From contig OY969561.1 in NCBI GenBank assembly GCA_963701085.1, forward strand, positions 992,001 through 1,056,000: a stretch of DNA of 64,000 bases, in the 5' to 3' direction. Of the stretch, positions 25,962 to 64,000 are shown piece by piece; position 1 is the stretch's first letter, and every line of letters begins with the position of its first letter. A program made the translations under genes and the position numbers. Under the pieces are notes generated by a model that worked only from the letters and a program-made list of their open reading frames with translations, was not told where the DNA came from and made no database searches. The stretch is from an uncultured bacterium. Lineage in GTDB: Bacteria > Babelota > Babeliae > Babelales > Vermiphilaceae.

Positions 25962-26912
25962 ATGAAAAAAGTAATGAGTTATTTGTTTTTTTTATGTATA
26001 TCAATGAATATGCTTGTGGCTATGGAGCCGCAGAGAGATAGACAAATGGTAAATCTCAAATTGATAGATGATAAGAACAAAATTTATTCAATAGCGCGAT
26101 GGAAAGTGGTACAAGAATTATATCTAGATGCTACGATTAACATTCCTGGTATTACCGAACAAGAAATTTCATATTTTGATAAAGAATTAAACACAATTGA
26201 TTTACAAGCGATTCAAGAGAATAAAGAGAATAAAGATGAGTTAAAAAAAGAGATTAAAAAAAAGATTATACTACATCACCTTCCTGCGTATAAAAAAGTT
26301 TTTGATTATCTTCTCGTTTCCATGATTGCAGACAATATTCACAATGATCTCGTGAAATCAGAAAAAGCTTATTCATTTGAGCCAAAATCAGTAAAAAAGT
26401 TATCAATGCAAGATTTATATATACCACCGATAGCTAAATTAGGGACAGATACTTTTAATGGGAAATGTTTCTTAGTTAATGATCATTCAGTCAACCCTGT
26501 AATAACTTATATACCTCTTTCAACAATGATGTGTATGGCTAAAAATCGTACGAATTGTGTGGAAATATACAATCATAATAAACATTTATTTGAACATATG
26601 GGTACAGTGTCATATGATCAAATAAACATCAATGGACTTGGTGTTACTACTGATTTGAGGTATTTAGTAGCCACCTTTGATGATATGCTGGTATCTAAAG
26701 CAGAATTGTATAGCGATAGTGATCTTGATGCATACAAAGACATAACAAATAATATAAAATTAGCCGATATTTATCTGTTATTGCATTTGTATAAAGCAAA
26801 AGAACAAAAACTCCGCGCTGAATTGCATGATAATGAACGCGAGTATATTCGCAATTATTTGACTACAAATGAAAAAGGTAAGGAACTTATACAAAAACAC
26901 TTTTTGTCGTAA
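25962..26912 (+). CDS. Secreted hypothetical protein (signal peptide ending AME)
   Basis: AAGGAG RBS; MKKVMSYLFFLCISMNMLVA-ME. Confidence 0.75.
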   Translation: MKKVMSYLFFLCISMNMLVAMEPQRDRQMVNLKLIDDKNKIYSIARWKVVQELYLDATINIPGITEQEISYFDKELNTIDLQAIQENKENKDELKKEIKKKIILHHLPAYKKVFDYLLVSMIADNIHNDLVKSEKAYSFEPKSVKKLSMQDLYIPPIAKLGTDTFNGKCFLVNDHSVNPVITYIPLSTMMCMAKNRTNCVEIYNHNKHLFEHMGTVSYDQININGLGVTTDLRYLVATFDDMLVSKAELYSDSDLDAYKDITNNIKLADIYLLLHLYKAKEQKLRAELHDNEREYIRNYLTTNEKGKELIQKHFLS

Positions 26913-26923
26913 GTTCCTTACCT

Positions 26924-26991
26924 TTTTTAATGAATTTTGCAATAGCCACCGTTTCTCGTTATGCTGTTTTTAATTAAAAAAAGCGAGAAAA
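26924..26991 (+). promoter_or_regulatory. Sigma70-like promoter of the M16 peptidase; direct repeat copy 2
   Basis: TTGCAA-17 bp-TATGCT; duplicated upstream of the previous gene. Confidence 0.6.
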
Positions 26992-27013
26992 TTCTTTTCT
27001 AGTGAGGTGGTCT

Positions 27014-29794: not shown

Positions 29795-29819
29795 ATATTT
29801 AATTTTTTATTGTTTATTA

Positions 29820-29858
29820 CGGGGAATTGGAAGTGTTTTTCCAATTCCCCGTTTTTTG
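29820..29858. terminator. Terminator between convergent M16 and WD40 genes
   Basis: CGGGGAATTGGAA...TTCCAATTCCCCG followed by T tract. Confidence 0.75.
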
Positions 29859-29879
29859 ATTTTTAAGTTATTATGCTGA

Positions 29880-30755
29880 TTATTTTATTTCTTGCTTAAC
29901 AAAAATGCGTATTTTGCTATCAAAAGATCCTGTTACTAATATATTTCCCGATGGGCCAAAGTGCATTGAAAGAACTTGTTTATCATGTTCCAGCATTGCA
30001 GTTTTAAGGTATGTTTCCAGATCAAAAATATGAACTTTATTATCACGTGATGCTATTGCAAGAAGTTTTTCAAAAGGGTCAAAGACAAGTGCGCTTACCG
30101 AACTGTTAAGTTCAAAAATTTTGATTTTTTCTTTTCTTTTAATATCAAATAAACATGCCTTGTTATTACCAGATCCTGTTGCAAGAAATTTTCCTGATGG
30201 GGAAACTGCTGTGGTAATAATCCAGCTGTTATGCTTAAAGGAGATGATTTTTTCATTTGTTTTGAGGTTGTTGATGCGCACTTTATTTTGAGATGATTCT
30301 ATCGATTTTACCCCGAGTAGATTATTATTATTATCAAAATGGATTGAGGTAATGGCTCCGTCATGAGCAAAAGAATCGATTCGGTTCAATGTTAATTCGT
30401 TTTCATCTTTTTTGATATCAAAGATACATGTTTCTGGTTTGTGTGATAGTGTTGCAAACTTTGTACCATCATGATTAAAACAAATTGATGTAATACCATG
30501 ATTAAAAGACAAAAAAGCCATTTTTTTACCCGATTGTAGATCAGATATGTATACCAGTTCAGCACAGGGAACAACAGCTAACAATCTTTCAGTAGGATCG
30601 ATGCACACTGAACTAATCCAACGATGGTCTTCAAATATTTTATCTAAATGCCATTGACCTGTTGATTTTACAGGAATAATTTTTTCAGACTCCATGCCGA
30701 TTAGTGTGCTATTTAAATAAAAAATGGTGAGAAAAATAATATTTTTATTGTTCAT
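29880..30755 (-). CDS. WD40-repeat protein with signal peptide
   Basis: Repeats such as H..WI...AVSPSGKFLATGSGNNKACLFD and FGPSGNILVTGSFDSKIRIF; N-terminus ...STLIG-ME. Confidence 0.88.
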   Translation of the reverse strand: MNNKNIIFLTIFYLNSTLIGMESEKIIPVKSTGQWHLDKIFEDHRWISSVCIDPTERLLAVVPCAELVYISDLQSGKKMAFLSFNHGITSICFNHDGTKFATLSHKPETCIFDIKKDENELTLNRIDSFAHDGAITSIHFDNNNNLLGVKSIESSQNKVRINNLKTNEKIISFKHNSWIITTAVSPSGKFLATGSGNNKACLFDIKRKEKIKIFELNSSVSALVFDPFEKLLAIASRDNKVHIFDLETYLKTAMLEHDKQVLSMHFGPSGNILVTGSFDSKIRIFVKQEIK

Positions 30756-30790
30756 GGTTTATTAATTCACGGTTTTTTTTACGAACTATT

Positions 30791-30943
30791 TTACTGCTTT
30801 TTTGATTGTATCAATAATTTATGTAGTTGTTGAGCTGAATTAGTTAATATTTTTTGTTCATCGTTATTCAGTGGGATTGGAAGTGTTTTTTCAATTCCAT
30901 TCTCACCGAGTATAGCAGGTAGGCTGATGCACATGTCATATTT
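30791..30943 (-). pseudogene. Relic 3' end of ldh (diverged duplicate)
   Basis: Translates to DMCISLPAILGENGIEKTLPIPLNNDEQKILTNSAQQLHKLL..., vs ldh DMCISLPAILGENGIEKILPIPLDNDEQKQLIDSAQQLRNL. Confidence 0.85.
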
Positions 30944-31054
30944 GATAATCGTGCTGAACAACTTGAAAAAATTACGCTTGATGATGTAAAAAAAGCAGTT
31001 AAAATATTTCTTAACTCAAAGAATTTGATTCCTGTCCGTGCAGGGTGAGTGTAA
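30939..31054 (+). pseudogene. Relic 3' end of the M16 peptidase gene (diverged duplicate)
   Basis: FDNRAEQLEKITLDDVKKAVKIFLNSKNLIPVRAG* vs FDNRAAQVEQVTLDEMKQAVKNILASDKIITVRAGRV*. Confidence 0.85.
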
Positions 31055-31088
31055 GATTCGATCCAACTGTATTATTAAGATAATAGAT

Positions 31089-31700
31089 CTATAGTTCAAA
31101 GAATTTTGCTACATCAATAGTATCACTCGCCACTTTTGTGGTGACATGGTATCGTTTATATTCATAAACATACTTGAATGTTTCTAGTACTCGTTCATAT
31201 CCATACCACGTGTCTTGAGCATCATGTACTATAAAGATATCGGTATGTGAGCGTAAACGTTCAATATCAACTACGCGACGCAGTCCTGGAGTGTGATCAA
31301 TAAACACAATACTCCAATGCGTATCTGAACCAATAGTATCCCACGCATCTTCTCCAACACTAAACCATACATCGTTCCTCTCGCTGTACTTATCATATGC
31401 AGGTACATAGATAAACGTATGCCAATCACGCTGCATATCAATAAATAATTCGAGCCATACTCTATCTACATCAGTTGAAACAAGCATGCGTTTCATTGGC
31501 GCACATAATGCATGCAACATTGGTGTACTATAATCGCCACAACCCATTTCCAGTATGGGTCCAGTCGTATTGGCTGCTATAGTTGCCAATACAGGAAAAT
31601 GTGTTCCAAAACCATTAATGCCATTACGATACTCTTGCATGGAGTTGAATATAGAATGCGTAAAAAATAAACATACTGTTATTGATAATATTTTTTTCAT
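31089..31700 (-). CDS. Class I SAM methyltransferase-like protein with signal peptide
   Basis: GPILEMGCGDYST glycine loop; VFIDH; IVHD; MKKILSITVCLFFTHSIFNS-MQE. Confidence 0.6.
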   Translation of the reverse strand: MKKILSITVCLFFTHSIFNSMQEYRNGINGFGTHFPVLATIAANTTGPILEMGCGDYSTPMLHALCAPMKRMLVSTDVDRVWLELFIDMQRDWHTFIYVPAYDKYSERNDVWFSVGEDAWDTIGSDTHWSIVFIDHTPGLRRVVDIERLRSHTDIFIVHDAQDTWYGYERVLETFKYVYEYKRYHVTTKVASDTIDVAKFFEL

Positions 31701-31758
31701 GACAGACTTTTCTTTTTTTAATGTGACGTCAGTTTGGTATAATAGTTGAAAATTTCTT

Positions 31759-32697: not shown

Positions 32698-32846
32698 GGG
32701 GTTTTTCCTGTTTTGTATGGCTTAATTATATTTGTCAGTAAGCATTTTTGATGGTATTATAATTAAGATAGTTTTTAATTATTATATTTTTCAACCTTTT
32801 TACTCATTTCTCATGACATATGAGAAACGATTGTAGGACCAGCTAA

Positions 32847-34781: not shown

Positions 34782-34799
34782 CACAGGAAGGCATATTCA

Positions 34800-35285: not shown

Positions 35286-35312
35286 TCGCACAGCGATAGT
35301 TATTAAAGAATA

Positions 35313-35434: not shown

Positions 35435-36220
35435 ATGATAAAGCAGATAGTTATTGTTTTGGTTTTCAGCATCATAATGCAAGCATCTGCTATGGAAATA
35501 CAACCTACAATAGATGATAAAAAATTGTGTTATTTGACCTGCATGCCCGTTGATGTGCAAAATCATATATTATTTTTTGTGAAAGATGATGAAACAGAAG
35601 AAGAGTTTATTGCGCGAATTAAAAATTTAGAAAAATCTTATGCGCATGAGCTGTGTGCAAAATATAATTTGTATGCTAAGCATGGTAGGCACGATTTTCA
35701 TGATATTGCTTTTTGTCTTGATGAATCGAAGTATGTTGTTTATGATTGGACTTCTCGGTTATTAAGATTGGTTGATAGAAAAGAAGATAAAATTTTGCAT
35801 AGTAAAGAGATATGTTGCAATAACAGAATATTTTTGATGCTTGCTCTTTCTCGCCATGCTAATATGATTGCAATGTTCGAACGTTCTAGCCATACAGAGG
35901 AGATTCGTAATGGGGTATTTCATGTAGTCATAGAAAATATTGTTACACACAAAAAATGGGAATTTGAACGATCGCTTCGCTTTGGGGAGACTATAAATGT
36001 ATTTGAATTTAATAAGCAAGGAACTCATCTCATTATAAAAGGAAGTAGTATTTGTTTACAATCGTCCAATGAAATATTGTCTCATTTGATTGTGCCAATT
36101 TTCAATGAAAAGAAAAAGACTGATACGCTACTCAAAATAGAAGATTTTAATCAAAAAACCCCATTTCAGCAGTATTTGATAGAGCGGCGGATTTGTAAGA
36201 GCATTGAATACAAAAAGTAA
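35435..36220 (+). CDS. Secreted hypothetical protein with F-box-like motif and beta-propeller-like remnant
   Basis: Signal peptide ...QASA-ME; LTCMPVDVQNHILFFV; FEFNKQGTHLII. Confidence 0.65.
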   Translation: MIKQIVIVLVFSIIMQASAMEIQPTIDDKKLCYLTCMPVDVQNHILFFVKDDETEEEFIARIKNLEKSYAHELCAKYNLYAKHGRHDFHDIAFCLDESKYVVYDWTSRLLRLVDRKEDKILHSKEICCNNRIFLMLALSRHANMIAMFERSSHTEEIRNGVFHVVIENIVTHKKWEFERSLRFGETINVFEFNKQGTHLIIKGSSICLQSSNEILSHLIVPIFNEKKKTDTLLKIEDFNQKTPFQQYLIERRICKSIEYKK

Positions 36221-36256: not shown

Positions 36257-36270
36257 TTTACATAATTGTT

Positions 36271-40898: not shown

Positions 40899-41126
40899 AT
40901 GAGTAAAATTGAGAAATTAATTCAGAAGATTTTTGATCATCAGCAAGTATCTTATAGCGATGCAGAAAAGATATTATTAGGTTTAGGGTATGAGTTAAAG
41001 ATTAGAGGATCGCATCATGTTTTTAGAAAAAATGGCTATAAACATGTAACTATTAAAAAGCGACCACAGTTGTTATCATATCAACTTAAAGATTTAGAGG
41101 AGGTTTTAAAAGATCATGGCTATTAA
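40899..41126 (+). CDS. hicA: HicA-family toxin (mRNA interferase)
   Basis: 75 aa; LGY...RGSHHVFRK motif. Confidence 0.88.
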   Translation: MSKIEKLIQKIFDHQQVSYSDAEKILLGLGYELKIRGSHHVFRKNGYKHVTIKKRPQLLSYQLKDLEEVLKDHGY

Positions 41127-41502
41127 AAAACAGTACAAAAAATTAAGTTATTATCTCAATTTGCCATGGACATACACGGTTGAACAAGCAAGAGATGAGA
41201 ATGATAGTAAAATATATGTTGTGTGTGTTAATGAATTGCCGGGAATATGCACGGATGCTTCATCAGTGGATGAGGCGATGAAGTTAATTCAAGAGCCAAT
41301 ATCTGCAGCAATCGAATTTTATATGGAAAATAATCAAGATATTCCAGAGCCGATCAGCCCAGAAGATTTTAAAGGTAATATAGCATACAGGACAACAAGC
41401 AGACGGCACTATCTTATTAGTAAAGAGGCACAGAAAAGAAAATTGTCCTTAAGTCAGTTGATTGATAATTTAGTTGATACGGTATTGATGGATAAGCGGT
41501 AA
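41116..41502 (+). CDS. hicB: HicB-family antitoxin
   Basis: YYLNLPW; ELPGI.T....DEA; IPEP; FKGNIAYR...H RHH-type tail; overlaps hicA. Confidence 0.88.
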   Translation: MAIKKQYKKLSYYLNLPWTYTVEQARDENDSKIYVVCVNELPGICTDASSVDEAMKLIQEPISAAIEFYMENNQDIPEPISPEDFKGNIAYRTTSRRHYLISKEAQKRKLSLSQLIDNLVDTVLMDKR

Positions 41503-41554: not shown

Positions 41555-41689
41555 ATTTTTGTTTTTTACTGTATGGGTTGCAGGAGACTTAAGGATTTCT
41601 ATTATTGTTGAACGTAATTTTATTTTGCCTTCTTTATAGGCAATGATTTCTTTGAGCCCTGTTTTTAAGTCTGTGTAAAATTTACTCAT
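41537..41689 (-). pseudogene. 50-aa ORF resembling the N-terminus of an XRE/HigA-type antitoxin, lacking the HTH
   Basis: MSKFYTDLKTGLKEIIAYKEGKIKLRSTIIEILKSP...; ATGA overlap with the upstream gene. Confidence 0.5.
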
Positions 41690-42798
41690 TTATATTTTCC
41701 CCAATTGAAGTCATATCTGCGTTTGATATCTTCATATGTATCTGTTTCTGGCAAAATGGATTCCATCCTAAAACCACGTCTTTTGAGGGTGTCAATATTA
41801 GTTTCTTTGAAGCTATTTATAGTCTGATCTTTTATATAATCGCCAGCTTTATCGCAATAATTGCCAATAACAACACCGGAGAAATTTAAGGTCGCTGTTC
41901 TGAGTTCGGATATAATTATGGGCAATACTTTTACTGCTATTGGGGGAGATAGTTCTTCTGTTAACATATGACTCCCTAGCCTCACTAGTAATGTTAGTCC
42001 TATAGTAATAGTTGTGGTTAGGGGTGCTAATTCTGAAGCAATTATTCCTGCACCTAAACCAATGTATGTTTCAGGGGATATTATTTGAGCTGCAATAATG
42101 GTGCAAGCTTTTAGGGTGAATCTTGTTATTAGTTTGGCTTTTGAGCCCAGTAGCTCTGCATTTTTTGTTCTTGCAGTGATATTATCTCCCAATAACTTGT
42201 TAATAAATGAAGGTTCTTGGTAATTGGTGTTAATAAAAATATCTTTACCATACAACTGTGCTAGATTTTCTCGTTGTTCCCTTCGTAAGCCTTGAAGCCG
42301 ATTAAACATTCCTTGTGAGAATTTTCTATCTTTACCTTCTATGGTAATAGGTTGATTGTCTTTACGATTTGCGTTAGTAATGAGATATAATATAGCTTCC
42401 AGCTGACCTTTATTAAAGGAGGTTATTTTTGAGTTCGAAAGTATTTTCTTAAGCGATTCGTTAGTAAAAAGTAATTCGTTACAAAAAGGACCAGTTTTTA
42501 AACTTTTGCTATACTGATAAGGCAATTGGATACTCATTGTTACTATTAAATTGGTTACGTCTTTGGGGAAAATTTCTTTATCATTCATTTCCTTTGCCCA
42601 GCGTAATTCATCAATAATAGAACGATCCGCATCAATGTCTTTTTTTATAAAATCACCGTATTTGGCATTAATATCTTCTATTGGTTGATACGAGCTACAG
42701 GTTCTTGCCACAAAATGCCAACTTTTTTGTGTATCCATGCTGTATAATGGAGCTGAGATTATCGATAAACTTGTTAAAAAAACAAGGAGCTTTTTCAT
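41686..42798 (-). CDS. Secreted hypothetical protein with hydrophobic C-terminal region
   Basis: GAGG RBS; MKKLLVFLTSLSIISAPLYS-MD; IFPKDVTNLIV F-box-like motif. Confidence 0.7.
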   Translation of the reverse strand: MKKLLVFLTSLSIISAPLYSMDTQKSWHFVARTCSSYQPIEDINAKYGDFIKKDIDADRSIIDELRWAKEMNDKEIFPKDVTNLIVTMSIQLPYQYSKSLKTGPFCNELLFTNESLKKILSNSKITSFNKGQLEAILYLITNANRKDNQPITIEGKDRKFSQGMFNRLQGLRREQRENLAQLYGKDIFINTNYQEPSFINKLLGDNITARTKNAELLGSKAKLITRFTLKACTIIAAQIISPETYIGLGAGIIASELAPLTTTITIGLTLLVRLGSHMLTEELSPPIAVKVLPIIISELRTATLNFSGVVIGNYCDKAGDYIKDQTINSFKETNIDTLKRRGFRMESILPETDTYEDIKRRYDFNWGKYK

Positions 42799-44438: not shown

Positions 44439-45014
44439 TTATTGAGAATTTTTTTGTTGAGTAATCTGTTCCAGCATGTGTTGATGTATGTTGGTCATAT
44501 AATCACAAAAATTTTGAGTGAACATTGTTTTATCACAACGTAAAAATTTAGTTAATTCATCTTGATGATGTTGAACTAACTGGGCTTCTTTTACGTTTAA
44601 TTCTAACTGTTTTTCTCGAGTATTATTGATTTTTTCTTGAGCTATATTGCGTTGCTGTAATATATAAACATTGGAATAATCAGGATGATTTTTGAGGTCA
44701 AGTTCCATTTGTTTTTCTTTTTTTGTAAGAGCTGTCATTTCAGGATCTTCATTCCATTTATTATAGGCATAATTTACGGTTGCACCGGCAACAATTGGCA
44801 GCAGCGTCCAACCAAGTCTATAGTACCCTGAATTTTCTTCTGAAGATGAATCAGTTTTTTGCTGAAATGTGACAATATGTATAGGGTTATCTTTGTCACC
44901 GAGACCCCCCTTTAGAAAATCTTCCATTCCATAACATTGGCTACTAAAAGCGAAAAATAAGATGATTGGTAAAAAAAATGATTTTTTATTTTTGATTTTA
45001 GATAAACTGAACAT
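44439..45014 (-). CDS. Secreted hypothetical protein with TM and coiled coil
   Basis: Signal peptide ...SSQCYG-ME; TM WTLLPIVAGATV. Confidence 0.65.
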   Translation of the reverse strand: MFSLSKIKNKKSFFLPIILFFAFSSQCYGMEDFLKGGLGDKDNPIHIVTFQQKTDSSSEENSGYYRLGWTLLPIVAGATVNYAYNKWNEDPEMTALTKKEKQMELDLKNHPDYSNVYILQQRNIAQEKINNTREKQLELNVKEAQLVQHHQDELTKFLRCDKTMFTQNFCDYMTNIHQHMLEQITQQKNSQ

Positions 45015-46799: not shown

Positions 46800-47555
46800 G
46801 TGAAAAAATTGTTTGTTATCTCTGCTATTTTCTTATTTTGTTATGCGATAGAATCCTTTCCCCATGAAAAAATAAAGATTTATGCTTTGTATACCCCATC
46901 ACATGAAGTTTTAAAAGATGAATTTTTTTTACCTTCTCTTCACGATGATTTTGATATAGTTTTTGAATTTTGTGATCAAACATGTCCATCAGCAAAGTTT
47001 ATGAGTGAAGGATGGACAGAGACGACAATGCGTAAAGTTGATCTTATTATTCGTGCAATTTGCGAAAATTGGGGTTCAATTTTTATCTTTTCGGATGTAG
47101 ATATTCAGTTCTTTTGCCCTATTCAAGAAGAAATACTGAGGTTAATGCTCGATAAGGATCTGGTAATACAAAGGAATACGCCGAGTGGTGTTTTATGTAC
47201 TGGTTTTTTTGCCTGTCGTGGCAATGAAAAAACATTACAACTGTGGAAAGATGTAAAAAAAAGAATGGAAATCAGTGGATCAAATAGTGATCAAAATTCA
47301 TTAAATCATTGTATAAAAAGAAGCAGTAAAAAGAATCCCTATAATGTTGTGTGGGATTATTTACCCGATACTTTTTTTGGCGGAGGTACACTTACCGGAT
47401 GTGAGTGGCATCCAGGCATGTTTTTGCCAATACCGCATGATATTATGATTCACCATGCTAACTGGACAAAAGGCATAAAAAACAAAATAGCTCAACTTGT
47501 GTACGTGCGCAATGTAGTGTCATCTCGCAAAAAGGCTATCGTGAAATTTCCTTAA
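46800..47555 (+). CDS. Nucleotide-diphospho-sugar transferase (GT77-like) with signal peptide
   Basis: RKV; IFSDVDI DxD; CTGFF; DQ..LN; HHANW; MKKLFVISAIFLFCYA. Confidence 0.7.
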   Translation: MKKLFVISAIFLFCYAIESFPHEKIKIYALYTPSHEVLKDEFFLPSLHDDFDIVFEFCDQTCPSAKFMSEGWTETTMRKVDLIIRAICENWGSIFIFSDVDIQFFCPIQEEILRLMLDKDLVIQRNTPSGVLCTGFFACRGNEKTLQLWKDVKKRMEISGSNSDQNSLNHCIKRSSKKNPYNVVWDYLPDTFFGGGTLTGCEWHPGMFLPIPHDIMIHHANWTKGIKNKIAQLVYVRNVVSSRKKAIVKFP

Positions 47556-49068
47556 CGGATTCATTGGTTAAAAATAGTCCTACGCGTGATGGTAGTAAAA
47601 AAGCAAGATGCATTTCTTTAAAAAGGTTATAGGTATTATAAAAGTTTAAATTTTTAATCTCTTGATAAAGTGTTGCTTTGTTGCACAGAAAAACATCTTC
47701 TCCTATGACTGATCCTTTCCATATATCTGAACCGGCAGGATTTTTCCATGCACATATTTCATCATTGAGGGTAATAAATCGTGGAGCTCCTTTTTTTAAA
47801 GGATGCCTATTAAGGTAAAAACGATAGGCATATGTTTTTTCAAGCCAAAAAATATAATGAGAAATATCTAATGGTTTTGTGATCAAACAGGAATCGGTTG
47901 CCATTAGGATATGATCATTTTTACATAATCCTAAGTACGTTAAAAGTCGGTTTTTCAAACTTTTACTACCATCCACATCATACGGTATGAAAATGACATT
48001 TGGGAAATCTTTCCTCATAAATCGACATATCTTTTTGTTAGCTTCTGTGTTGTGGTAGAAGGTGTGGATTGTTCCTAGGTTAATAGTGTTGTTTTGGATG
48101 TTTTCTAGGATGCTGGCTATATCAGTGAGGTCATAACGACACAATAAAAACATATCGGCATGTGCATTTTTTACTGGAACAAGCCTTTTCTTTTTTGGTT
48201 GAAACTGCACAGGATAGCAACTTTTCTTTCTTATTTCACGTGCTGATGCCGTTTGAATTCGTCGATCAACTTTAAAACCAACAATCTCTGAATATAAATT
48301 TCTTATATATAAAATATCAGAAATGAACTTAATGTGAGTATGGGCCATTTCTACCATGGGGAAATACATAGCAACATCATTACTTGCAGGATAAAAGTCG
48401 CCTTGAAAACCTTCAATGTTATCCGCTATGAGATCTTCAAGTTTTACTAATTTAAATAACCATGATCTAAAGGATCGTGGATGCATATAAACAAAACTGT
48501 AGTAGCGATATGCTCGTTTTCGTTGAACATGTTTAGGAACAGCACGACAATATCCCATTTCTTTGTGTCCCCATTGAATTGCTTGGGAAGCGGGGACATT
48601 TTTATACTGGCCATAAGAAAACCATATATTTTCATCTTTGTAGAGGTTGTTATAGAATTCGAGTACGTGTGAATGTGCTAATGAATCGTCACCATCAACC
48701 ATAACAATAATTTCGTCATCATCACACTCATAGAGGACTTTGTATAAATTAAATAGCTTACGATGACGTTTTTTATTGCGAATAAAGGTAACACGGTTTT
48801 GCAAATTATGATTATCAATATACTGTTGAATAACCTCACAATTGTTATCCGTTGAGCAGTCATCAACAATAATTACTCGAAAATTGTCATATTCTTGTGT
48901 AAATATTGAGTTAAGAGTGTTTTCAGACCACTGATCATTGTTATATGAACAGATAACAACAACAATGGGAAGTTCGATAGAATCCTGTGTTGTTGATATT
49001 GCTCCGTTCGCAAGGTGCCCAAGACATAAAAAGAATGTGGCTAGTATTTTGATATGGTTCATTATCAT
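47536..49068 (-). CDS. GT2 glycosyltransferase with signal peptide
   Basis: VVICSYNN, IIVDDCSTD, VDGDD; N-terminus ...LATFFLCLGHLANG. Confidence 0.85.
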   Translation of the reverse strand: MIMNHIKILATFFLCLGHLANGAISTTQDSIELPIVVVICSYNNDQWSENTLNSIFTQEYDNFRVIIVDDCSTDNNCEVIQQYIDNHNLQNRVTFIRNKKRHRKLFNLYKVLYECDDDEIIVMVDGDDSLAHSHVLEFYNNLYKDENIWFSYGQYKNVPASQAIQWGHKEMGYCRAVPKHVQRKRAYRYYSFVYMHPRSFRSWLFKLVKLEDLIADNIEGFQGDFYPASNDVAMYFPMVEMAHTHIKFISDILYIRNLYSEIVGFKVDRRIQTASAREIRKKSCYPVQFQPKKKRLVPVKNAHADMFLLCRYDLTDIASILENIQNNTINLGTIHTFYHNTEANKKICRFMRKDFPNVIFIPYDVDGSKSLKNRLLTYLGLCKNDHILMATDSCLITKPLDISHYIFWLEKTYAYRFYLNRHPLKKGAPRFITLNDEICAWKNPAGSDIWKGSVIGEDVFLCNKATLYQEIKNLNFYNTYNLFKEMHLAFLLPSRVGLFLTNESVKEISR

Positions 49069-49235: not shown

Positions 49236-50735
49236 ATGTTTTTGTCCACTGTGATGAGAAATTTTGTTTTTGGATTACTGGTATTGCCATCTTTGCTTAT
49301 CAATGCTCAAAGTGACAAGATAATAACTATTATTGGTACCGGATATGTTGGTCTTGTTTCAGGGGCCTGTCTTGCAGAAATTGGTAATTCAGTAATTTGT
49401 GCGGATATTGATTCAAGAAAAATAGAGATGTTGCATAATGGAATCATGCCAATTTATGAAAAAGGTCTTGCAGAACTTGTTGAACGTAATGTTGATGCAG
49501 AAAGATTAATGTTTACTGATAATGTTGTAGAAGCAATAGAGCTCGGGGACATTATTTTTATTGCTGTTGGTACACCAATGGGGGATGATGGTAGTGCAAA
49601 TTTATCATATATTGATGGTGTTGTAAGAATGATTGCTGAAAATATTAATTCATACAAAATTATTGTTACCAAAAGTACGGTACCAGTTGGAACAGGAAAA
49701 GGCATACGCGCACAGCTAGAAAATGATTACGGTATAGATCCAAATCTGTTTAGCATTGTTTCTAATCCTGAATTTTTACGCGAAGGACTTGCGGTTAATG
49801 ATTTCCTTTACCCAGACCGTTTAGTTATTGGAACAGATTCTGATAGTGCGCTTATCGAGTTATGTGAAGTATATGAAGCATTAATTGCAGGTGGTACGCC
49901 GTACGTGCTGACTAATGTGCAAACGGCGGAAATGATTAAATATGCAGCTAATGCATTTTTATCAGTCAAAATAAGTTATATCAATGAAGTTGCTAATCTT
50001 TGTGATGCAACTGATGCTGATGTAAAAACAGTTGCGTATGCCATGGGGCTTGATCATCGCATAAGTCCTGCATTCTTAAATCCAGGTCCTGGTTTTGGTG
50101 GTTCTTGTTTTCCAAAAGATTCTCAAGCAATAGTGTATATAGCTCATACACATAATTTACCTTTCTATACCGTGCAGGCGGCATTACATGCAAATACTGT
50201 TCAACAAGGCAAGACTGTTGAAAAATTACAAGCACTTATGCAAATAGAGCGGCAGGAAGATCTTGAGGGGAAAATAGTAGCTGTGCTTGGTCTTGCGTTT
50301 AAAGCTGATACTGATGATGTTCGTTATTCTCCTTCCATTAGAACCATTGAGTTGTTGCAAGAGTTAGGGGCAATTATAAAAGCCTATGATCCAATTGCAA
50401 CTGATAATATGCGGAGAATATTCCCTGATATAATCTATTGTTCATCACCTTACGATGCGGCAACAGATGCTGATGCGGTTGTTATTATGACTGACTGGGA
50501 TGAGATTAAACAACTTGATTTTGCACGGTTAAAAAAGTTTATGCATTACCCAATGATTGTTGATGCGCGCAATGTGGTGAATCCTGAAATTCTCAAACAG
50601 CTTGGTTATGTATGTGATTCGATTGGGCAATCATACTTGTGTAAAAAACGTAATGAATATGTTCGTACATTGATGCCAATACATCTACATAAACGTGTTC
50701 CATTGACTAAGTTTACAACAAGAAAAGGTAAGTAA
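49236..50735 (+). CDS. ugd: UDP-glucose/GDP-mannose 6-dehydrogenase with N-terminal signal-peptide-like extension
   Basis: IIGTGYVGL, FIAVGTP, KSTVPVGT, NPEFLREG, KYAANAFL, GFGGSCFPKD, LGLAFK..TDD.R. Confidence 0.93.
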   Translation: MFLSTVMRNFVFGLLVLPSLLINAQSDKIITIIGTGYVGLVSGACLAEIGNSVICADIDSRKIEMLHNGIMPIYEKGLAELVERNVDAERLMFTDNVVEAIELGDIIFIAVGTPMGDDGSANLSYIDGVVRMIAENINSYKIIVTKSTVPVGTGKGIRAQLENDYGIDPNLFSIVSNPEFLREGLAVNDFLYPDRLVIGTDSDSALIELCEVYEALIAGGTPYVLTNVQTAEMIKYAANAFLSVKISYINEVANLCDATDADVKTVAYAMGLDHRISPAFLNPGPGFGGSCFPKDSQAIVYIAHTHNLPFYTVQAALHANTVQQGKTVEKLQALMQIERQEDLEGKIVAVLGLAFKADTDDVRYSPSIRTIELLQELGAIIKAYDPIATDNMRRIFPDIIYCSSPYDAATDADAVVIMTDWDEIKQLDFARLKKFMHYPMIVDARNVVNPEILKQLGYVCDSIGQSYLCKKRNEYVRTLMPIHLHKRVPLTKFTTRKGK

Positions 50736-52634: not shown

Positions 52635-52653
52635 GAGAACTCCTTTTTATATA

Positions 52654-55424: not shown

Positions 55425-55433
55425 TAAGGATTT

Positions 55434-55943
55434 TTGATGAAAAAATATTTAATTATACTGTTGCTCATGGTAATCGGTTGCGAAAATCAACTGCATGCTA
55501 TGTTTGGGGATTATGAAATAGCACAAGACAATATAAGGATACTCCGACGTCTAGCAGAAATGTTTCATCAGCGATTAATATTTGATTTTGGGGGAATTCC
55601 AGAACGTGAAATGCAAAAAATGCGGAACACAACAGCTAGAATTTTGAAAAAACAGCTAAAACGACGAGAAGAACAATTAGAACAAGTGATGCAACGGTTA
55701 CTACAACAACAGTGGCAAGAAGTACGACGACAACAAGCAGAACCACAGCAGCGACCACAACAGCGATGGCAAGAATGGCGGCGACAAGAATTTATATTAG
55801 AAGGACGGGCAGAAGCACAAGCCATTAAACATCAAAAGAAAACTTATAGCAAATATCATTGTGCGCAGACGCGCACCAATCAACACAATGCTCCTATACA
55901 TCAGCCGCGATCAAATAATTATGCTATAAAAAATAAGAGATAA
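55434..55943 (+). CDS. Secreted Q/R-rich hypothetical protein
   Basis: Signal peptide ...QLHA-MF; QQWQE repeats; PIHQPR motif. Confidence 0.65.
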   Translation: MMKKYLIILLLMVIGCENQLHAMFGDYEIAQDNIRILRRLAEMFHQRLIFDFGGIPEREMQKMRNTTARILKKQLKRREEQLEQVMQRLLQQQWQEVRRQQAEPQQRPQQRWQEWRRQEFILEGRAEAQAIKHQKKTYSKYHCAQTRTNQHNAPIHQPRSNNYAIKNKR

Positions 55944-55973
55944 AAAATTTACGGTTAGATTAAAGGGATTGTA

Positions 55974-56246
55974 ATGAAGTTGATTATGTTTTTTGTGTTG
56001 CTAACAAGTTTTTTTGGAGTTTTATCTGATCGTGCTAATTCTCATTCAATACCACGAAGATATAGAGAAAGAGTACCGGTTTGGTTCGGCGTTCAGGAAA
56101 CATGGTTACAAGAGAAACCAGAGAAGTTATATTTTAAAAACGATAATCGTATTGATCGGCAAAAACATGCTCAGATCAATCAGCCAATTCATCAGCCGAG
56201 AAAGCATAATCATGAGCCGCGCTGCAATAGTCGTCGAAATCAGTAA
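55974..56246 (+). CDS. Small secreted basic hypothetical protein
   Basis: Signal peptide; C-terminal NQPIHQPR shared with the previous ORF. Confidence 0.55.
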   Translation: MKLIMFFVLLTSFFGVLSDRANSHSIPRRYRERVPVWFGVQETWLQEKPEKLYFKNDNRIDRQKHAQINQPIHQPRKHNHEPRCNSRRNQ

Positions 56247-56409
56247 TTACTGATAAGAGCCTATTCTTAAGTTAATTTTTATTTGTGCTTTATAATATAC
56301 ATGATATAATAAAATATATTATTCAGTATGTTAAGCCTTTTGTTGCTTAATTATACAATTAGAAAATACCAAAGTAAGCAATAACAATCCAGAGGATCCA
56401 GGGGGATAC

Positions 56410-56796
56410 ATGAAAAAAAATATAACAATTGCTCTTTTTATCGTTAGTTGCGCTATGCCAATCTTTGGAATGGAAAATAAAGGGTTCGTCCAAAGTAATC
56501 CACAAATTATCACAAGGGAATCCCTAAAGGAAGAGCTAGTGATATTTCATACGATAGAATCATTACCTATTTATAAATTGCCTCCTGTTTATCCTATCTA
56601 TTCTGGTAATAGTCTGCCTCGGATAGAAACTCATTTGACACGCTGTGTATCTGAAGGATGTATGATAAATAAGCACTTTGAAGTAACAAATTCTAATCAA
56701 TCATACGGGTTTCCAATGGTAAGACCTCGCATAAACCCCTGTATTGAAAAAAGAATTGCTTACCATTCAATGAAAAAAGAATTTTTTTCTTTTTAA
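56410..56796 (+). CDS. Secreted hypothetical protein
   Basis: GGGGG RBS; MKKNITIALFIVSCAMPIFG-ME. Confidence 0.65.
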   Translation: MKKNITIALFIVSCAMPIFGMENKGFVQSNPQIITRESLKEELVIFHTIESLPIYKLPPVYPIYSGNSLPRIETHLTRCVSEGCMINKHFEVTNSNQSYGFPMVRPRINPCIEKRIAYHSMKKEFFSF

Positions 56797-57403
56797 AACG
56801 GTTGGGTATACAATCTTTTTTCTTCCGATCATCCTGCCGTGTCCGACGAAGCTTTATGCGAAGTCTGGGAGTATTTTTGCTTTGCAAAAATGTATCGAAG
56901 ATCATTTCAATAGCTTTATCAATCAGTTGTTCAAGCTCATTAAAATTGTCGAAGTTGCTCAAAACATATTGGGCAACTTCTTCTTTATTTTCTGGCCGAC
57001 CAATGCCAAATCGTAGGCGCATAAAATCTGGCCCACAAAACTCCATAATTGAGCGCAATCCATTGTGTCCACGATGACTGCCACCAGTTCTGAATTCAAT
57101 TTTACCAAATGGTTTTTCCAGTTCATCATGCACAACTAATAGATTTTCAGCTTTGATGCCTTGCTTAAGTAATGGTGGAATTACTTTGCCGGAGCTATTC
57201 ATAAAAGTTTGTGGTTTGACGAGGATGATTTTTTCACCATTAACTTCAATGTCTGTAATTTCCATATCGGCCTTTTTTTGCCATGATGCATTATGTTTTT
57301 CTGCAAGTGCATCAAGAACTAAAAAACCAATGTTATGGCGATTGTAGTGGTACTGTTTTCCTGGATTACCTAGGCCTATAATTATTTTTATTTTATTTTG
57401 CAT
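56693..57403 (-). CDS. pth: Peptidyl-tRNA hydrolase (3' end extended by a repeat; true stop uncertain)
   Basis: IIGLGNPG..Y..NRHNIGF, KPQTFMNSSG, VHDELE, GHNGLRS, RLRFGIGRP. Confidence 0.93.
   Translation of the reverse strand: MQNKIKIIIGLGNPGKQYHYNRHNIGFLVLDALAEKHNASWQKKADMEITDIEVNGEKIILVKPQTFMNSSGKVIPPLLKQGIKAENLLVVHDELEKPFGKIEFRTGGSHRGHNGLRSIMEFCGPDFMRLRFGIGRPENKEEVAQYVLSNFDNFNELEQLIDKAIEMIFDTFLQSKNTPRLRIKLRRTRQDDRKKKDCIPNRFKKKKILFSLNGKQFFFQYRGLCEVLPLETRMID
56833..56869 (-). repeat. Repeat family B in the pth C-terminal extension
   Basis: CCTGCCGTGTCCGACGAAGCTTTATGCGAAGTCTGGG. Confidence 0.65.
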
Positions 57404-57431
57404 GAGAATATTTTTCAATTGAGTTCGATAT

Positions 57432-57500
57432 GGTTCGACAGGCTCACCACGAACGGTATTAGAAGTTTATTTTTCCGTTCGTCCTGAGCTTGTCGAAGGA
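57432..57500. repeat. REP-like family A inverted pair
   Basis: GGTTCGACAGGCTCACCACGAACGG ... CCGTTCGTCCTGAGCTTGTCGAAGGA. Confidence 0.85.
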
Positions 57501-57538
57501 AACGAACGTCCAATAAATTATATCAGTAAGATTATTTT

Positions 57539-58196
57539 TTAAAATAGTAATTCTGTATTGAACATAAAAGATATTATGTATTGTATCAGCTCATGCGGCA
57601 TTTGCGAATTATTGATTATGAAATTAAGTAAGCATATTTTTTTTGGATATATTTTTTTGATTGATTCAATTCGTTCCAATCGTTCAACAAGAGCTAATTC
57701 TCTGTCTTCTGGCGTTGGTTCAAAACCAAGATCGCGAAGTATTTGTATAAATTTTTGTTTTTCTTCAAAGGTTACTTTTTCTGCCATAGTTGCAGATCCT
57801 AAGGCCGAGTAGTTGTTTATGCGAGTATTTTTTAATATGTCTAAATTCTGGAGGATCTATTAGCCGATGTAGAGATCTTATATTACACCCAACAAAGCAA
57901 TATTTACCATGATCATACTGGAAATTCGTTTCACGAGAGATGTCCCCATATGTTTTTTTATGAAGATCTTGGCGATATGTACATGATAAAAAGTAATGAT
58001 TAGGTTATTGATCCAACCCAATATGGGTCTAAGCCGAATTTCCAAAAATCTTTATTATCATCTAATTTTTGTTTAAATGCATCACGCTTTTTGGTTAGTT
58101 CTTGAATGCAGATTTGTTTTCCATGCATTGTGTTGCATTGGGGAGTAGTAAAAAGAGGGATAATAAAAGTAACTTTGTGTCTTGATAAAAAAACAT
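57539..58196 (-). pseudogene. Secreted hypothetical protein, frameshifted; paralog of the next gene
   Basis: MFFYQDTKLLLLSLFLLLPNATQC-ME start; NNYSALGSATMAEKVTFEEKQKFIQILRDLGFEPTPEDRELAL; C-terminal MPHELIQYII. Confidence 0.6.
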
Positions 58197-58220
58197 TTAA
58201 TTATCCTGTTATATTTAAAG

Positions 58221-58250
58221 AAAGCGGTTGAATTATTCAACCGCTTTTTT
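58221..58250. terminator. Terminator between the paralogs
   Basis: AAAGCGGTTGAA-TTA-TTCAACCGCTTT. Confidence 0.75.
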
Positions 58251-58281
58251 AAGTTCTTTTATGATTTATTTTCATATGATA

Positions 58282-58749
58282 CTAAAAGTCCAAGATCAGT
58301 GCTAGTTCTATATCCTTTTCTGTTGGCCTACAGCCGGCAGCATACAAGTTTTGTATAATTTTATTTTTTTCCTGATCAGATATATCTGTTGGAAGGGTTG
58401 CTACCCCCATGGCAGAATAACCTTTGTAGCGAGCATTTTTTAGCATATTCATTTTTGAAAGAGTTTCTACATTATGGTCAAGTAGAGCACCTTTGTAAAA
58501 CTCATTATCAGTTTCTACGTATCCGTATGTATGTTTAGGGTATCTGCATATTACGAGATATTGTAGAGGATCCTCAAATCGTAGCCCTTTCCAACCTCGA
58601 GCATTCCATAAGGCTTCCTCTAAATGATTTCTCTCACGTGCTATGTTATCAAGGTATTCTTTTCGTTACAGGTTTATGCAACGTACAATTTTCATGCAGT
58701 GTACGGTAGTAGGAATGAGTAAAAGAGATAATAAAAACATTTTTGTCAT
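58282..58749 (-). pseudogene. Secreted hypothetical protein with internal stop and frameshift; paralog of the previous gene
   Basis: MTKMFLLSLLLIPTTVHC-MK start; KGYSAMGVATLPTDISDQEKNKIIQNLYAAGCRPTEKDIELAL. Confidence 0.6.
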
Positions 58750-58783
58750 GAGAATGCCTTTTTTTATTTTTTATAGAGATGTA

Positions 58784-59443
58784 CTACGCACCAATTTTAG
58801 CAGGCTTTGCAGTAGCTGTTTTATTATCAGCAACTTTGAGCGAACTTTCTGTTTTTTTATTTTGAGCAAGTTCAATTTTGTATGTTTTATTCATTTCATT
58901 GATTGCTTTATCAGTAAAATCAAATTTGTCTGAAACGTAGATTGCGCGGCCGGTCATTTTGTCAAAAACAATGTCTATGTTTTCATTTTTAGCGAGTTTA
59001 GTTACGCTTATTTCAAGATCTTGAGCGAGGCTTTCGGTAGCTATTTGCATATCCATTTTGAGCTCTTCTTCTTTTTCTGCAACAAGATTTTTTATATCAC
59101 GTTCCATTTTTAATAATTTTTTTTCTTCTTTTTCACGTGCAGAATCACTCATTGTTGTTGATTTACTGACATAATCATTTTTTGCTTTTTCAAATTTTTT
59201 TGATTCTTCTTGAAGTTCACCAGTTGCTAAATTTCTTTTGCCTTCAATTTCTTTACGTTTTTCCTGACCTTTTTCACTTTCTCCCATCATGGTGAATGAT
59301 TCAACAAATCCAACTGTTGCATTGATAGTAACTTTACTATCGCTAAGAACATCAGCGGTGGAAAGTGATTTTTGTTCAGCATTAATCGAGTTGCTTAATA
59401 AAATTGCGCATAAAGTTGTTGCGGTGATCATACGATTTTTCAT
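58784..59443 (-). CDS. skp: OmpH/Skp-family periplasmic chaperone
   Basis: Signal peptide; VGFVES...SEKGQ; long coiled coil; AKNENIDIVFD...IYVSDKFDFTD. Confidence 0.8.
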   Translation of the reverse strand: MKNRMITATTLCAILLSNSINAEQKSLSTADVLSDSKVTINATVGFVESFTMMGESEKGQEKRKEIEGKRNLATGELQEESKKFEKAKNDYVSKSTTMSDSAREKEEKKLLKMERDIKNLVAEKEEELKMDMQIATESLAQDLEISVTKLAKNENIDIVFDKMTGRAIYVSDKFDFTDKAINEMNKTYKIELAQNKKTESSLKVADNKTATAKPAKIGA

Positions 59444-59475
59444 GAAATTTTCCTCATTTTTAGCGCTCAAAGATA

Positions 59476-59564
59476 CCCTTCAACAAGTTCAGGGCGAGCG
59501 CCTAAGATATAAATATTTTTTCTTCCGTTCATCCTGAGTGCTCCGTTAGGAGTTTATCGAAGGA
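59476..59564. repeat. REP-like family A inverted pair
   Basis: CCCTTCAACAAGTTCAGGGCGAGCG ... CCGTTCATCCTGAGTGCTCCGTTAGGAGTTTATCGAAGGA. Confidence 0.85.
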
Positions 59565-59578
59565 TACTCTTTTTACAT

Positions 59579-62269: not shown

Positions 62270-62296
62270 TATTCTTACTCCACATTAAAAAAATAT

Positions 62297-63451
62297 TTAT
62301 GTTAGAGGATATTTTTTAAGTAAATTTTTATCAAGATGCGCGCATGTTTGTTCAAGTTCTTTACTCGTCAGTAATCCCGTTTGTGTGCCAAGATGTTTAA
62401 TAACGGAAGCACTATTGATAATGCCTGCGCGTAAAGCATCATCAATAGATTTGTTATTAAGCAGTTGTGCTACAAAGCATGAGCCGAATGCATCTCCTGC
62501 ACCAATACTGCTCACAATATTGATTTTTATGCTGGGATGGAAGTAGATGTTGTTTTTATCAGAGGCATAGACTCCTTCAGCTCCATTAGTAACAACAATG
62601 ATATCTGGTCCGCATGTATGCACTGCATTAAAAAATTGCTGTAAAGTAAAACAGGTTGTTGCAGACCCAAGCGGTTTTTTAAGCAAATCTGGTAGAGTTT
62701 TATCGTGAGGTGTAGGTATTTCAAGGGGCCTGTCCGCCGTAGCTTTACCTGCGCTTTGAAGCCTTGGCGAAAGAGTGGCGAAGGAGGGTGGTAGCTTGAG
62801 TGATAGGGATGTCATGAGCAGTTCAGCTTCATAGCTGTTTAAAATTAAAATAGTAATGCCTGATAATGCTTCTTTTAAAAATTCAGCACCAGCATGCAGT
62901 TGACTAGTTCCCGGATTGGCTGCAACAGGTTTGTTGTATTTTTTAGCGAGTTGTGTGATGGGAATTAAGAGTGGCGCAGCAGGACCAGTCAGTGAGGTGA
63001 TATAGAGTTGATCAGTATCAGCAATGGCGGATTCAGGCAGTTCTTTGTGCGTGAGGGTAATATTTGCACCGCGATAAACTAAAACTGCACTATTGCCTTG
63101 CGGTCCGGGAATAATAAAAGATTGGCCAGTTGGTGCTGCATCTGTGCGTAGTGCATGAGTGGTAGAAACATGTTCTTGTGCTAATGTTTGTAAAATAAAA
63201 TCACCAGCGTTATCAGTTCCAATTTTGAAAAAGCTTTGCACATCAAAGCCGGCGCGTGCAAATGATACCGCGCTATTTGTTGCACCGCCACCACAATAGT
63301 ACATGATATCTTGCAGTTCTATTTTTCTTCCCGCTCGCATGCATACATACGCAAAATCCTCTTCTTTGGTATGCAGGTGTAATGTTTCTACACCTTCATA
63401 TTGAGTAAAAATATCCTGCATGCCGCTGCCGATTGTTAACACTTTTTTCAT
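62297..63451 (-). CDS. PfkB-family carbohydrate kinase containing an in-frame repeat insertion
   Basis: GGGATNSA, NPG, LNSYEA, VTNGAEG, SSIGAGDAFGS. Confidence 0.9.
   Translation of the reverse strand: MKKVLTIGSGMQDIFTQYEGVETLHLHTKEEDFAYVCMRAGRKIELQDIMYYCGGGATNSAVSFARAGFDVQSFFKIGTDNAGDFILQTLAQEHVSTTHALRTDAAPTGQSFIIPGPQGNSAVLVYRGANITLTHKELPESAIADTDQLYITSLTGPAAPLLIPITQLAKKYNKPVAANPGTSQLHAGAEFLKEALSGITILILNSYEAELLMTSLSLKLPPSFATLSPRLQSAGKATADRPLEIPTPHDKTLPDLLKKPLGSATTCFTLQQFFNAVHTCGPDIIVVTNGAEGVYASDKNNIYFHPSIKINIVSSIGAGDAFGSCFVAQLLNNKSIDDALRAGIINSASVIKHLGTQTGLLTSKELEQTCAHLDKNLLKKYPLT
62729..62788 (-). repeat. Repeat family B (nested), in-frame in pfkB
   Basis: CCTGTCCGCCGTAGCTTTACCTGCGCTTTGAAGCCTTGGCGAAAGAGTGGCGAAGGAGGG. 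Confidence 0.75.
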
Positions 63452-63533
63452 ATTTATCCTTTTGTAATCATATATTTTTTGATAATATAAGTTTATCTCT
63501 ATTGGTTATAACAAACATGAAGGGCGAAATTAT

Positions 63534-64000
63534 ATGAAACGATATATCTTGTTGAGTGCATGGTGCATGTTATTTTTTAGTGCAATGAATTTTGGTATGC
63601 AAGATGAAGCTAAATCGCGTTGTATTGTTAATAAGCCCCTTACTATAGAAGAGATAGTGCAGCAATATATTATTAAAGGGCAATATATTAAAGGACAGTG
63701 TTGTGTTAGTGATGTAGTTATAAATGGAAAAAGATATATTATTAAACAAAAATTGAATAGTAGTGTTAAAACTAGCTTTATGAAAAAGAGACAAGACTTT
63801 TTCAGGGAAATGAATGGTACTTCTGATGTTTCTTCTGCAGTAGGGCAATTAATTGAAGAAATTGAAGTTGCTAAAAATAAACAGCAACCAATTGAGTGTA
63901 TATATGAAGAAGGTGAATTGTTGTTGTTTGAACGTAGCGAGAAAATGCATAAAGCACCACTATTAACATTCAAACCAGGCAAAGCTCTTAAAAAAGCTGC
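63534..64000 (+). CDS. Secreted hypothetical protein (runs off the window end)
   Basis: Open frame from ATG 63534 to the window end; MKRYILLSAWCMLFFSAMNFG-MQ. Confidence 0.65.
   Translation, partial: MKRYILLSAWCMLFFSAMNFGMQDEAKSRCIVNKPLTIEEIVQQYIIKGQYIKGQCCVSDVVINGKRYIIKQKLNSSVKTSFMKKRQDFFREMNGTSDVSSAVGQLIEEIEVAKNKQQPIECIYEEGELLLFERSEKMHKAPLLTFKPGKALKKA

Follow-up and report, generated by a model that had tools for sequence, protein, structure and literature searches.

A probable Met-Glu preference at predicted signal peptidase I sites in a Dependentiae genome

Eleven genes located between positions 25962 and 64000 of a 64,000-nucleotide stretch of bacterial DNA (contig OY969561.1; the whole stretch is called the window below) encode a signal-peptide-like leader followed directly by methionine. 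The question raised by this locus is whether such a junction, described in the original prediction as an export signature shared by unrelated orphan proteins, is a property of the genome as a whole, and what it could serve. The source genome is a single contig of 1,198,634 bp with 37% GC and is assigned to the Babeliales within the Dependentiae (TM6), a phylum of intracellular protist parasites. Its analysis indicates with little doubt that the leaders are ordinary Sec-type signal peptides with predicted cleavage by signal peptidase I (SPase I), and that they follow a soft, lineage-specific rule by which the cut is followed by Met (+1) and then by Glu or, in fewer cases, Asp (+2). The rule very probably covers about one third of the exported proteins and about 160 unrelated families. 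In all likelihood it is concentrated in lineage-specific, clustered and fast-evolving proteins, the conserved envelope proteins being largely without it.

Met-Glu junctions and the position of the start codon

Open reading frames (ORFs) were called with a simple longest-first caller of our own, yielding 1,297 ORFs, of which 529 were flagged as signal-peptide-like by a crude rule of charge plus hydrophobicity. Cleavage sites were taken from our own crude heuristic and not from SignalP, with a site picker that is blind to the residue at +1 (it uses -3, -1 and distance only). The candidate set comprises the 237 ORFs with an [AGSCT]↓M junction (the arrow marks the predicted cut), and a Met-acid test set was built from the first Met after the hydrophobic core, the preceding residue being unconstrained (n = 117 with Glu or Asp next).

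The expected enrichment of Met at +1 was recovered. Indeed, Met occupies 25% of the 506 sites returned by the +1-blind picker (background 2.0%) and 117 of 413 sites once ORFs with further hydrophobic segments are removed. The motif [AGSC]-M-[EDQN] is found at 168 of 27,237 sites at residues 15-35 versus 264 of 305,622 sites downstream (7.1-fold, binomial P 5e-83), and the frequency of Met in signal-peptide-like ORFs is about 7% at residues 20-24 versus about 2% elsewhere. In model bacteria, Met is rare at +1. The predicted cut does precede Met, as had been proposed: in the 117 leaders of the test set, the -1 residue is A, G, S, C or T in 94% of cases and the -3 residue is permissive in 98% (backgrounds 28% and 51%, respectively).

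An artefact of gene calling, in which Met would be the real start and the leader a chance upstream frame in AT-rich DNA (or, in a variant, both starts would be used), is scarcely credible. It could account for a few conserved cytoplasmic enzymes with probably spurious leader-like frames, such as GDP-mannose dehydratase and a UDP-glucose pyrophosphorylase homologue, and it finds some support in the sole public homologue of the window gene 42798- (P0061, 98% identical, 350 aa), whose annotated start is this Met, the leader being omitted. However, a Shine-Dalgarno (SD)-like motif, defined as a GGAG, GAGG or AGGA core 4-18 nt upstream, stands before 93 of the 237 leader ATGs, much as it does at reliable core starts (51 of 124), and is nearly absent before the internal Met (5 of 237; 313 of 6,185 for other internal Mets), so that a separate SD-led start at this Met is unlikely. 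Moreover, the n-h-c architecture and the -3/-1 fit hold, the leaders are conserved as protein in paralogues, and the AT-rich relative G030 gives only 1/43 under the same pipeline, which therefore does not create the signal. Translation begins at the leader's own ATG, contrary to the caveat attached to the original prediction that Met might simply be the start codon.

Apart from the residues after the cut, the leaders are of the classical Sec/SPase I type, with a charged n-region, a hydrophobic core, small residues at -1 and -3 and a length of about 22 residues; they differ from it by Met at +1 in 25-32% of sites, with Glu at +2. Length, charge and hydrophobicity are indistinguishable between Met-acid and non-Met leaders, the mean net charge of the n-region (+1.8) and the 8-residue hydrophobicity maximum (2.9) being equal in both. 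Other leader types do not apply. A lipobox-like pattern was found in only 17 signal-peptide-like ORFs of the genome and +1 is Met, not Cys, which is not the signal peptidase II type; the twin-arginine pattern (RRx-hydrophobic-hydrophobic) occurs in 1 of 130 Met-acid leaders. Type IV prepilin leaders, short and charged, are cleaved behind a Gly, and both their hydrophobic segment and a Glu at +5 belong to the mature side; in the present leaders the core lies ahead of the cut, and pilin-like ORFs (GFSLIELM...) form a separate class in the genome. A single SPase I is encoded, namely one LepB (340-aa frame, TIGR02227 match above cut-off), and since this enzyme processes both classes of leader, it does not require Met.

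The +2 position is acidic. With one representative per family, Glu accounts for 32% and Asp for 10% of +2 residues, i.e. 42% D/E at +2 versus 4% at +3, the corresponding value in non-Met signal peptides of the same genome being 14-15% at both +1 and +2. Relative to background, Glu is enriched 5.6-fold (P 3e-25) and Asp 1.8-fold (P 0.02), while Gln (1.2-fold) and Asn (1.0-fold) are at background. Consequently, of the Glu/Asp/Gln group originally named, Glu and Asp stand and Gln does not, and of the residue class of the N-terminal acetyltransferase NatB (E/D/Q/N), which had been invoked to explain it, only the two acidic members are enriched. The +2 Glu codons are GAA and GAG in a ratio of 74:21, which matches the usage of the genome (79% GAA); selection thus acts on the protein residue, and a nucleotide motif as the cause is ruled out. 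In this genus the junction seems to extend upstream, His being found at -2 in 20 of 130 Met-acid leaders versus 6 of 153 other leaders (P 0.0015), an excess that is weak (5/68) in G028, a genome of the same order but a different family. Small residues are somewhat depleted at +2 (A, T and S 0.4-0.5-fold; P and C 0 of 162). A second residue selected to block methionine aminopeptidase was considered as well and gained no separate support, this depletion being individually significant for Pro alone.

Independent families, carriers and relatives

A leader module fused repeatedly onto captured ORFs at their own start Met had been offered as one origin of the junction. As a general cause it was rejected: BLAST sorts the 237 candidates into 162 families, of which 146 have a single member, the leaders of non-homologous pairs are 11.9% identical, and native starts in this genome read MK, MN or MI rather than ME (the common second residues are K, N, I, L and S, with Glu outside the top eight). 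In a few tandem families, the leaders are far better conserved than the mature parts. Four proteins of 155-170 aa (G000:C1 352167, 827702, 910062 and 910742) have leaders 83-94% identical (...LLLFFATGAAI[AG]↓M...) and mature parts without BLAST-detectable homology; the leader evolves here much more slowly than its cargo.

A related possibility, which we regard as improbable, is that of an evolutionary relic, in which young or captured genes gained a leader upstream of their existing start codon, Met being what is left of that start and serving nothing today. The concentration of the rule in lineage-specific genes and the turnover of Met between orthologues would fit such an origin, as would two proteins whose leaderless homologues begin near Met: the alignment of a thymidylate-kinase paralogue (SHA↓MENHK...) with a leaderless kinase of G028 sets in about 2 residues past Met, and a HIT-like protein is offset by about 11 residues from its leaderless homologue. 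On the other hand, Glu reaches 32-40% at +2 although it is not among the top eight native second residues, a fossil start explains neither the His at -2 nor how strictly -3 and -1 fit, and the leaders are not a shared module. Furthermore, no position is better conserved among diverged paralogues than +1 and +2. Within the genome, 162 paralogue pairs, not mutually independent, show 67% identity at +1 and 53% at +2, compared with 20-49% at 23 flanking positions; they were retained from 485 BLAST pairs after removal of pairs above 60% identity, of reciprocal duplicates and of pairs homologous only from beyond residue 90 onwards. The thymidylate-kinase paralogue (G000:C1:725039, +; ...FTSHA↓MENHK..., 47% identical to the G028 kinase) is also of interest in itself as an apparently exported enzyme of nucleotide metabolism. 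As judged from the alignments, the rule is statistical, with gain and loss between orthologues, i.e. a preference rather than a requirement.

The rule is unevenly distributed among exported proteins. Conserved proteins were defined as reciprocal best hits against G028, of which the whole main contig was compared. Among signal-peptide ORFs without further transmembrane (TM) segments, +1 Met is present in 3 of 63 conserved proteins versus 107 of 312 without a G028 hit (Fisher P 2.5e-7); the comparison leaves out a second contig, which holds about 12% of G028, so that some conserved genes fall in the no-hit class and the contrast is, if anything, weakened. The looser [AGSCT]↓M pattern is present in 21 of 101 best-hit, 16 of 44 other-hit and 200 of 384 no-hit ORFs, several of the 21 best-hit cases being evident false extensions or membrane proteins. 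G028's own proteins show the same direction more weakly (5/63 versus 47/250, P 0.04). In addition, Met-acid genes are clustered on the chromosome, with 82 adjacent pairs versus 59 +/- 4 by permutation.

This unevenness bears on the idea of an enzyme optimum, according to which the single SPase I would cleave Met-Glu best at P1'-P2' and fast-evolving, highly expressed exported proteins would have drifted towards it. A soft, statistical rule fits this idea, and the family-model match of the sole LepB is split by an insertion, a form shared with the rule-bearing G028. Nevertheless, we consider it very unlikely: the conserved envelope proteins are processed by the same enzyme and carry Met in only 3 of 63 cases, although the stretch after the leader is normally free to evolve, and the form of LepB does not track the rule in small samples. 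The form of LepB was itself discarded as the cause, the canonical form occurring in G022 (5/39) and the split form in G021, G024 and G029 (1/15, 0/16 and 0/21; samples of 47-100 kb).

A domain scan of 40 genome tiles covered 117 of 130 Met-acid ORFs and 131 of 153 non-Met ORFs, the tiles containing 133 of the latter, of which two of more than 900 aa were dropped. In the Met-acid set, 17 of 117 proteins match Ank_2 and up to 10 match WD40-type propeller models, and all 25 top families are of these two kinds. In the non-Met set (n = 131), both Ank_2 and WD40 lie outside the top 25 families, which include glycosyltransferases, TPR, collagen repeats (4), PI3/PI4-kinase (3), penicillin-binding transpeptidases (2) and OmpH (2).

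Relatives differ widely in the frequency of the junction. In the 12 genomes listed below, it was expressed as the number of [AGSCT]M[EDQN] junctions per signal-peptide ORF without further TM segments (chance about 2%). G006, from the same genus, is represented by a syntenic piece of 120 kb, and the other relatives mostly by samples of 47-140 kb from contig starts, so that low values are provisional.

Own genome: 133/413
G028: 78/336
G006: 10/40 (120 kb syntenic piece)
G022: 5/39
G012: 3/14
G030: 1/43
G023: 1/28
G021: 1/15
G019: 1/10
G020: 0/21
G024: 0/16
G029: 0/21

The G030 sample is rich in small exported ORFs of orphan-like character that lack Met. Among the housekeeping genes around CTP synthase in 50 relatives, +1 Met was found at 25 of 253 sites.

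The eleven sites of the window

At all eleven sites, the predicted gene starts were confirmed, each with an MKK-type n-region, a hydrophobic core, a small residue and a Met about 20 residues in. Met is followed six times by Glu, twice by Gln and once each by Asp, Phe and Lys. Nine of the sites belong to full-length ORFs of 128-370 aa and two to stubs of 33 and 27 aa. The features are as follows, with a Skp/OmpH chaperone added as a contrast case.

25962..26912 (+): 316-aa orphan; leader 25962-26021 (20 aa, ...MLVA), Met-Glu at 26022-26027; no Pfam match
29880..30755 (-): 291-aa WD40 beta-propeller protein; leader 30755-30696 (...TLIG), then Met-Glu; WD40 E 9.5e-27
31089..31700 (-): 203-aa conserved Babeliales protein; leader 31700-31641 (...IFNS), then Met-Gln
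35435..36220 (+): 261-aa orphan; leader 35435-35491 (19 aa, ...QASA), then Met-Glu
41686..42798 (-): 370-aa orphan; leader 42798-42739 (...PLYS), then Met-Asp
44439..45014 (-): 191-aa orphan; leader 45014-44928 (29 aa, ...QCYG), then Met-Glu
55437..55943 (+; start originally noted as 55434): 168-aa orphan; leader 55437-55499 (...QLHA), then Met-Phe, +2 not acidic
56410..56796 (+): 128-aa orphan; leader 56410-56469 (...PIFG), then Met-Glu; no Pfam match
58095..58196 (-): 33-aa stub; leader ...ATQC, Met-Glu, then stop
58666..58749 (-): 27-aa stub; leader ...TVHC, then Met-Lys
63534..64000 (+): orphan running past the window end, 167 aa in the genome; leader 63534-63596 (...MNFG), then Met-Gln
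58784..59470 (-): Skp/OmpH chaperone, contrast case; PF03938 E 5.9e-17; INA↓EQ, no Met

The mature parts are unrelated, as had been claimed: among the nine full-length proteins, the best pairwise BLASTP E value is 1.2, and a Pfam domain was detected in one of them only (WD40 in 30755-). In the interval 25962-64000, about 0.3 [AGSC]M[EDQN] junctions would be expected by chance among about 17 signal-peptide ORFs (background 0.00086 per site), and the classified leaders comprise 7 M[EDQN], 3 other Met and 7 non-Met. In the first part of the window (1-25961), where the type II secretion genes are found together with housekeeping genes, none of the 5 classified leaders has Met.

Several junctions are shared with homologues. 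In the family of 25962, leader↓M[ED] with dissimilar leaders is common to the protein itself and to each of five homologues from the genus, SA↓MEIQ is kept in 3 of 3 public homologues of 35435+ (97, 66 and 49% identity), and the best G006 homologue of 30755- reads VVA↓MD. The stub 58196- is, according to the DNA 3' of it, the 5' remnant of a broken paralogue, a blastx search of 57400-58800 giving a match of 38% over 92 aa to an intact C↓ME protein (o1058) elsewhere in the genome. The same search of 57400-58800 returned no homologue of the stub 58749-, which is probably a gene remnant. The statement that envelope proteins of the window lack the signature was upheld in part: Skp reads INA↓EQ and the 653-aa ORF 13538-15499 reads LRA↓EL, but the latter is at most a putative outer membrane protein, no Pfam match being found for this ORF.

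Fate of the new N-terminus and route of secretion

The best overall explanation, held with moderate confidence, is that Sec/SPase I leaders follow a lineage-specific Met-Glu rule which serves the fate of the N-terminus after cleavage. The leader would be cut by SPase I just before Met-Glu, a new N-terminus would be exposed, and the rule could act on the fate of this N-terminus in proteins that leave the bacterium. Tentatively, this role may lie on the host side, the retained, non-destabilising Met-acid end looking native in the host cytoplasm. A more specific and slightly more doubtful version is N-terminal camouflage, in which the Met-Glu end of an effector would resemble to the host an untouched cytosolic N-terminus. 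Dependentiae, lacking an injection system, would send host-directed proteins through Sec and would shape the SPase cut, and the resulting Met-Glu end might escape N-end-rule degradation and aminopeptidases or be accepted by the host N-terminal machinery. NatB substrates of eukaryotes have Met-Asp, Met-Glu, Met-Asn or Met-Gln N-termini, and the predicted mature proteins would begin with Met-Glu or Met-Asp; the other two members of the class, Asn and Gln, show no enrichment at +2. NatB, moreover, acts co-translationally, on nascent chains at the ribosome, and is not known to act on delivered proteins.

A second-step sorting tag is rather unlikely in our view, though it comes next in order. Here, the Met-Glu end together with the junction context would mark proteins for passage of the outer membrane by a type II system or vesicles, envelope residents being unmarked. 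Such a tag would fit the presence of the rule in accessory proteins and its absence from housekeeping envelope proteins, as well as an extended junction that includes His at -2 (20/130 versus 6/153). Furthermore, type II secretion is the only secretion system reported for Babela massiliensis in passages of its genome description (PMC4378268). The window itself encodes a type II secretion/type IV pilus cluster (105-8473, +) with a GspC-like gene, two GspD secretins and a PilM-like gene between them. Compared with the intact genes of the same-genus G006, however, secretin 1 has an in-frame stop near 2798-2800, secretin 2 a frame shift near 7155-7163, and the PilM-like gene is split into three frames (3786-5413). 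These two secretins are the only secretin matches in the genome, and no such damage affects the remaining core genes of the window that are syntenic; the breaks may reflect either genuine decay or a fault of the assembly. None of the sequencing runs compared contains more than 0.10 of the words sampled from positions 1000-9000 of the window. With both secretins apparently interrupted, the rule is nevertheless strongest in this genome (133/413), and Met is gained and lost between orthologues, two points that count against a sorting tag. So does the fact that we know of no linear N-terminal signal for type II substrates. The order of preference is a host-side role of the N-terminus, followed by an export tag, a fossil start codon and an enzyme optimum.

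Several observations weigh against a role in the fate of the N-terminus, and particularly against its host-side version. The cleavage sites, and hence the mature N-termini, are heuristic predictions. The lack of enrichment of Gln and Asn at +2 weakens the version based on the NatB class. Two expanded families account for the ankyrin and WD40 signal, and three PI3/PI4-kinase-like proteins, which are plausible effectors in the host cytosol, are in the non-Met set. In strict alignments with G028 and G006, Met is kept in 7 of 26 pairs, no better than flanking positions, in a test that is underpowered (by eye, Met is displaced by 2-3 residues in 3 more of these pairs). Within the window, the syntenic G006 orthologue of 45014- (27% identity) retains the leader and reads YS↓NP. 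None of the 15 closest homologues of 31700- (69-85% identity) has Met at the junction, V, P, F, T, I, S, N or A being found instead, and the Met of 31700- is probably incidental. The frequency is near chance in the sampled same-order genomes G030 (1/43), G020 (0/21) and G029 (0/21), from which it follows that the rule is dispensable. Finally, the available data do not separate a host-side role from a sorting role.

The closest known parallel is the Q-rule of the Bacteroidetes, in which Gln is found at +1 of SPase I substrates and is cyclised to pyroglutamate, as described in parts of PMC5837995 and PMC10653852. Each is a preference, restricted to one lineage, for a single P1' residue on Sec/SPase I signal peptides that are otherwise canonical; each emerges only from statistics over a whole genome, and each is believed to bear on what becomes of the N-terminus exposed by cleavage. 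They differ in the residues, which are Met followed by Glu here, with Gln not among the six commonest +1 residues, and in the proteins concerned: the Q-rule applies to most SPase I substrates, including periplasmic ones, whereas the present rule largely spares conserved envelope proteins (3/63 versus 107/312). The Q-rule also has a dedicated enzyme, glutaminyl cyclase.

No linked partner enzyme emerged from searches of the genome for M24 peptidases and Gcn5-related N-acetyltransferases (GNATs), glutaminyl cyclase not being included in these searches. Two M24 peptidases are encoded, neither with a leader, and two GNATs, both with hydrophobic N-termini. The first GNAT (G000:C1:912729-913289, +) is RimI-like (TIGR01575 55.9 bits, below the cut-off of 86.4), with an N-terminus ending in a lipobox-like LAAC, and the second (539693-540343) has a signal-peptide-like start. 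The RimI-like GNAT was dismissed as a partner, as it is found in 27 of 31 relatives, including the rule-poor G030, and hence shows no link to the Met rule.

Within the same phylum, Babela massiliensis and Chromulinavorax destructans are comparable in their very large share of signal peptides (here 529/1,297 ORFs) and in the predicted secretion of ankyrin and WD40 proteins into the host, according to passages of PMC4378268 and PMC6561590; for C. destructans, signal peptides are given for 44% of coding sequences (PMC6561590). In contrast to the present analysis, the residue after the cleavage site goes unmentioned in those passages. Indeed, the words 'methionine' and 'cleavage' do not occur in the main text of PMC6561590, nor do 'methionine' and 'cleavage site' in that of PMC4378268. 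The term 'signal peptide' is absent from PMC4776705, and 'methionine', 'TM6' and 'Dependentiae' are absent from PMC5837995. No description of a Met after Dependentiae signal peptides was found in full-text literature searches, whose coverage excludes subscription journals and supplements.

If functional, the rule would provide a sequence-only marker for the host-directed secretome of an almost uncultured phylum of protist parasites, and would join the Bacteroidetes Q-rule as the second known case in which a lineage tunes the first residues that signal peptidase leaves behind. The junction could be used as a feature for effector prediction in metagenome-assembled genomes of Dependentiae. Gene callers can start at the internal Met and so lose the leader, as in the public homologue of 42798-.

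Other features of the window were noted. The cumulative GC skew has its minimum at 20001-22000 and changes from negative to positive near 22 kb, a pattern expected at a replication origin or terminus. Two small overlapping ORFs of 75 and 128 aa (40899-41502, +) have a layout typical of a toxin-antitoxin pair. A UDP-glucose 6-dehydrogenase (49236-50735, +) and a family-2 glycosyltransferase (47536-49068, -) have leader-like hydrophobic N-termini, which is unusual for normally cytoplasmic enzymes; their junctions read ...INAQS↓DKIIT... and ...HLANG↓AIST..., respectively, and these N-termini are kept in the G006 orthologues (81% and 65% identity).

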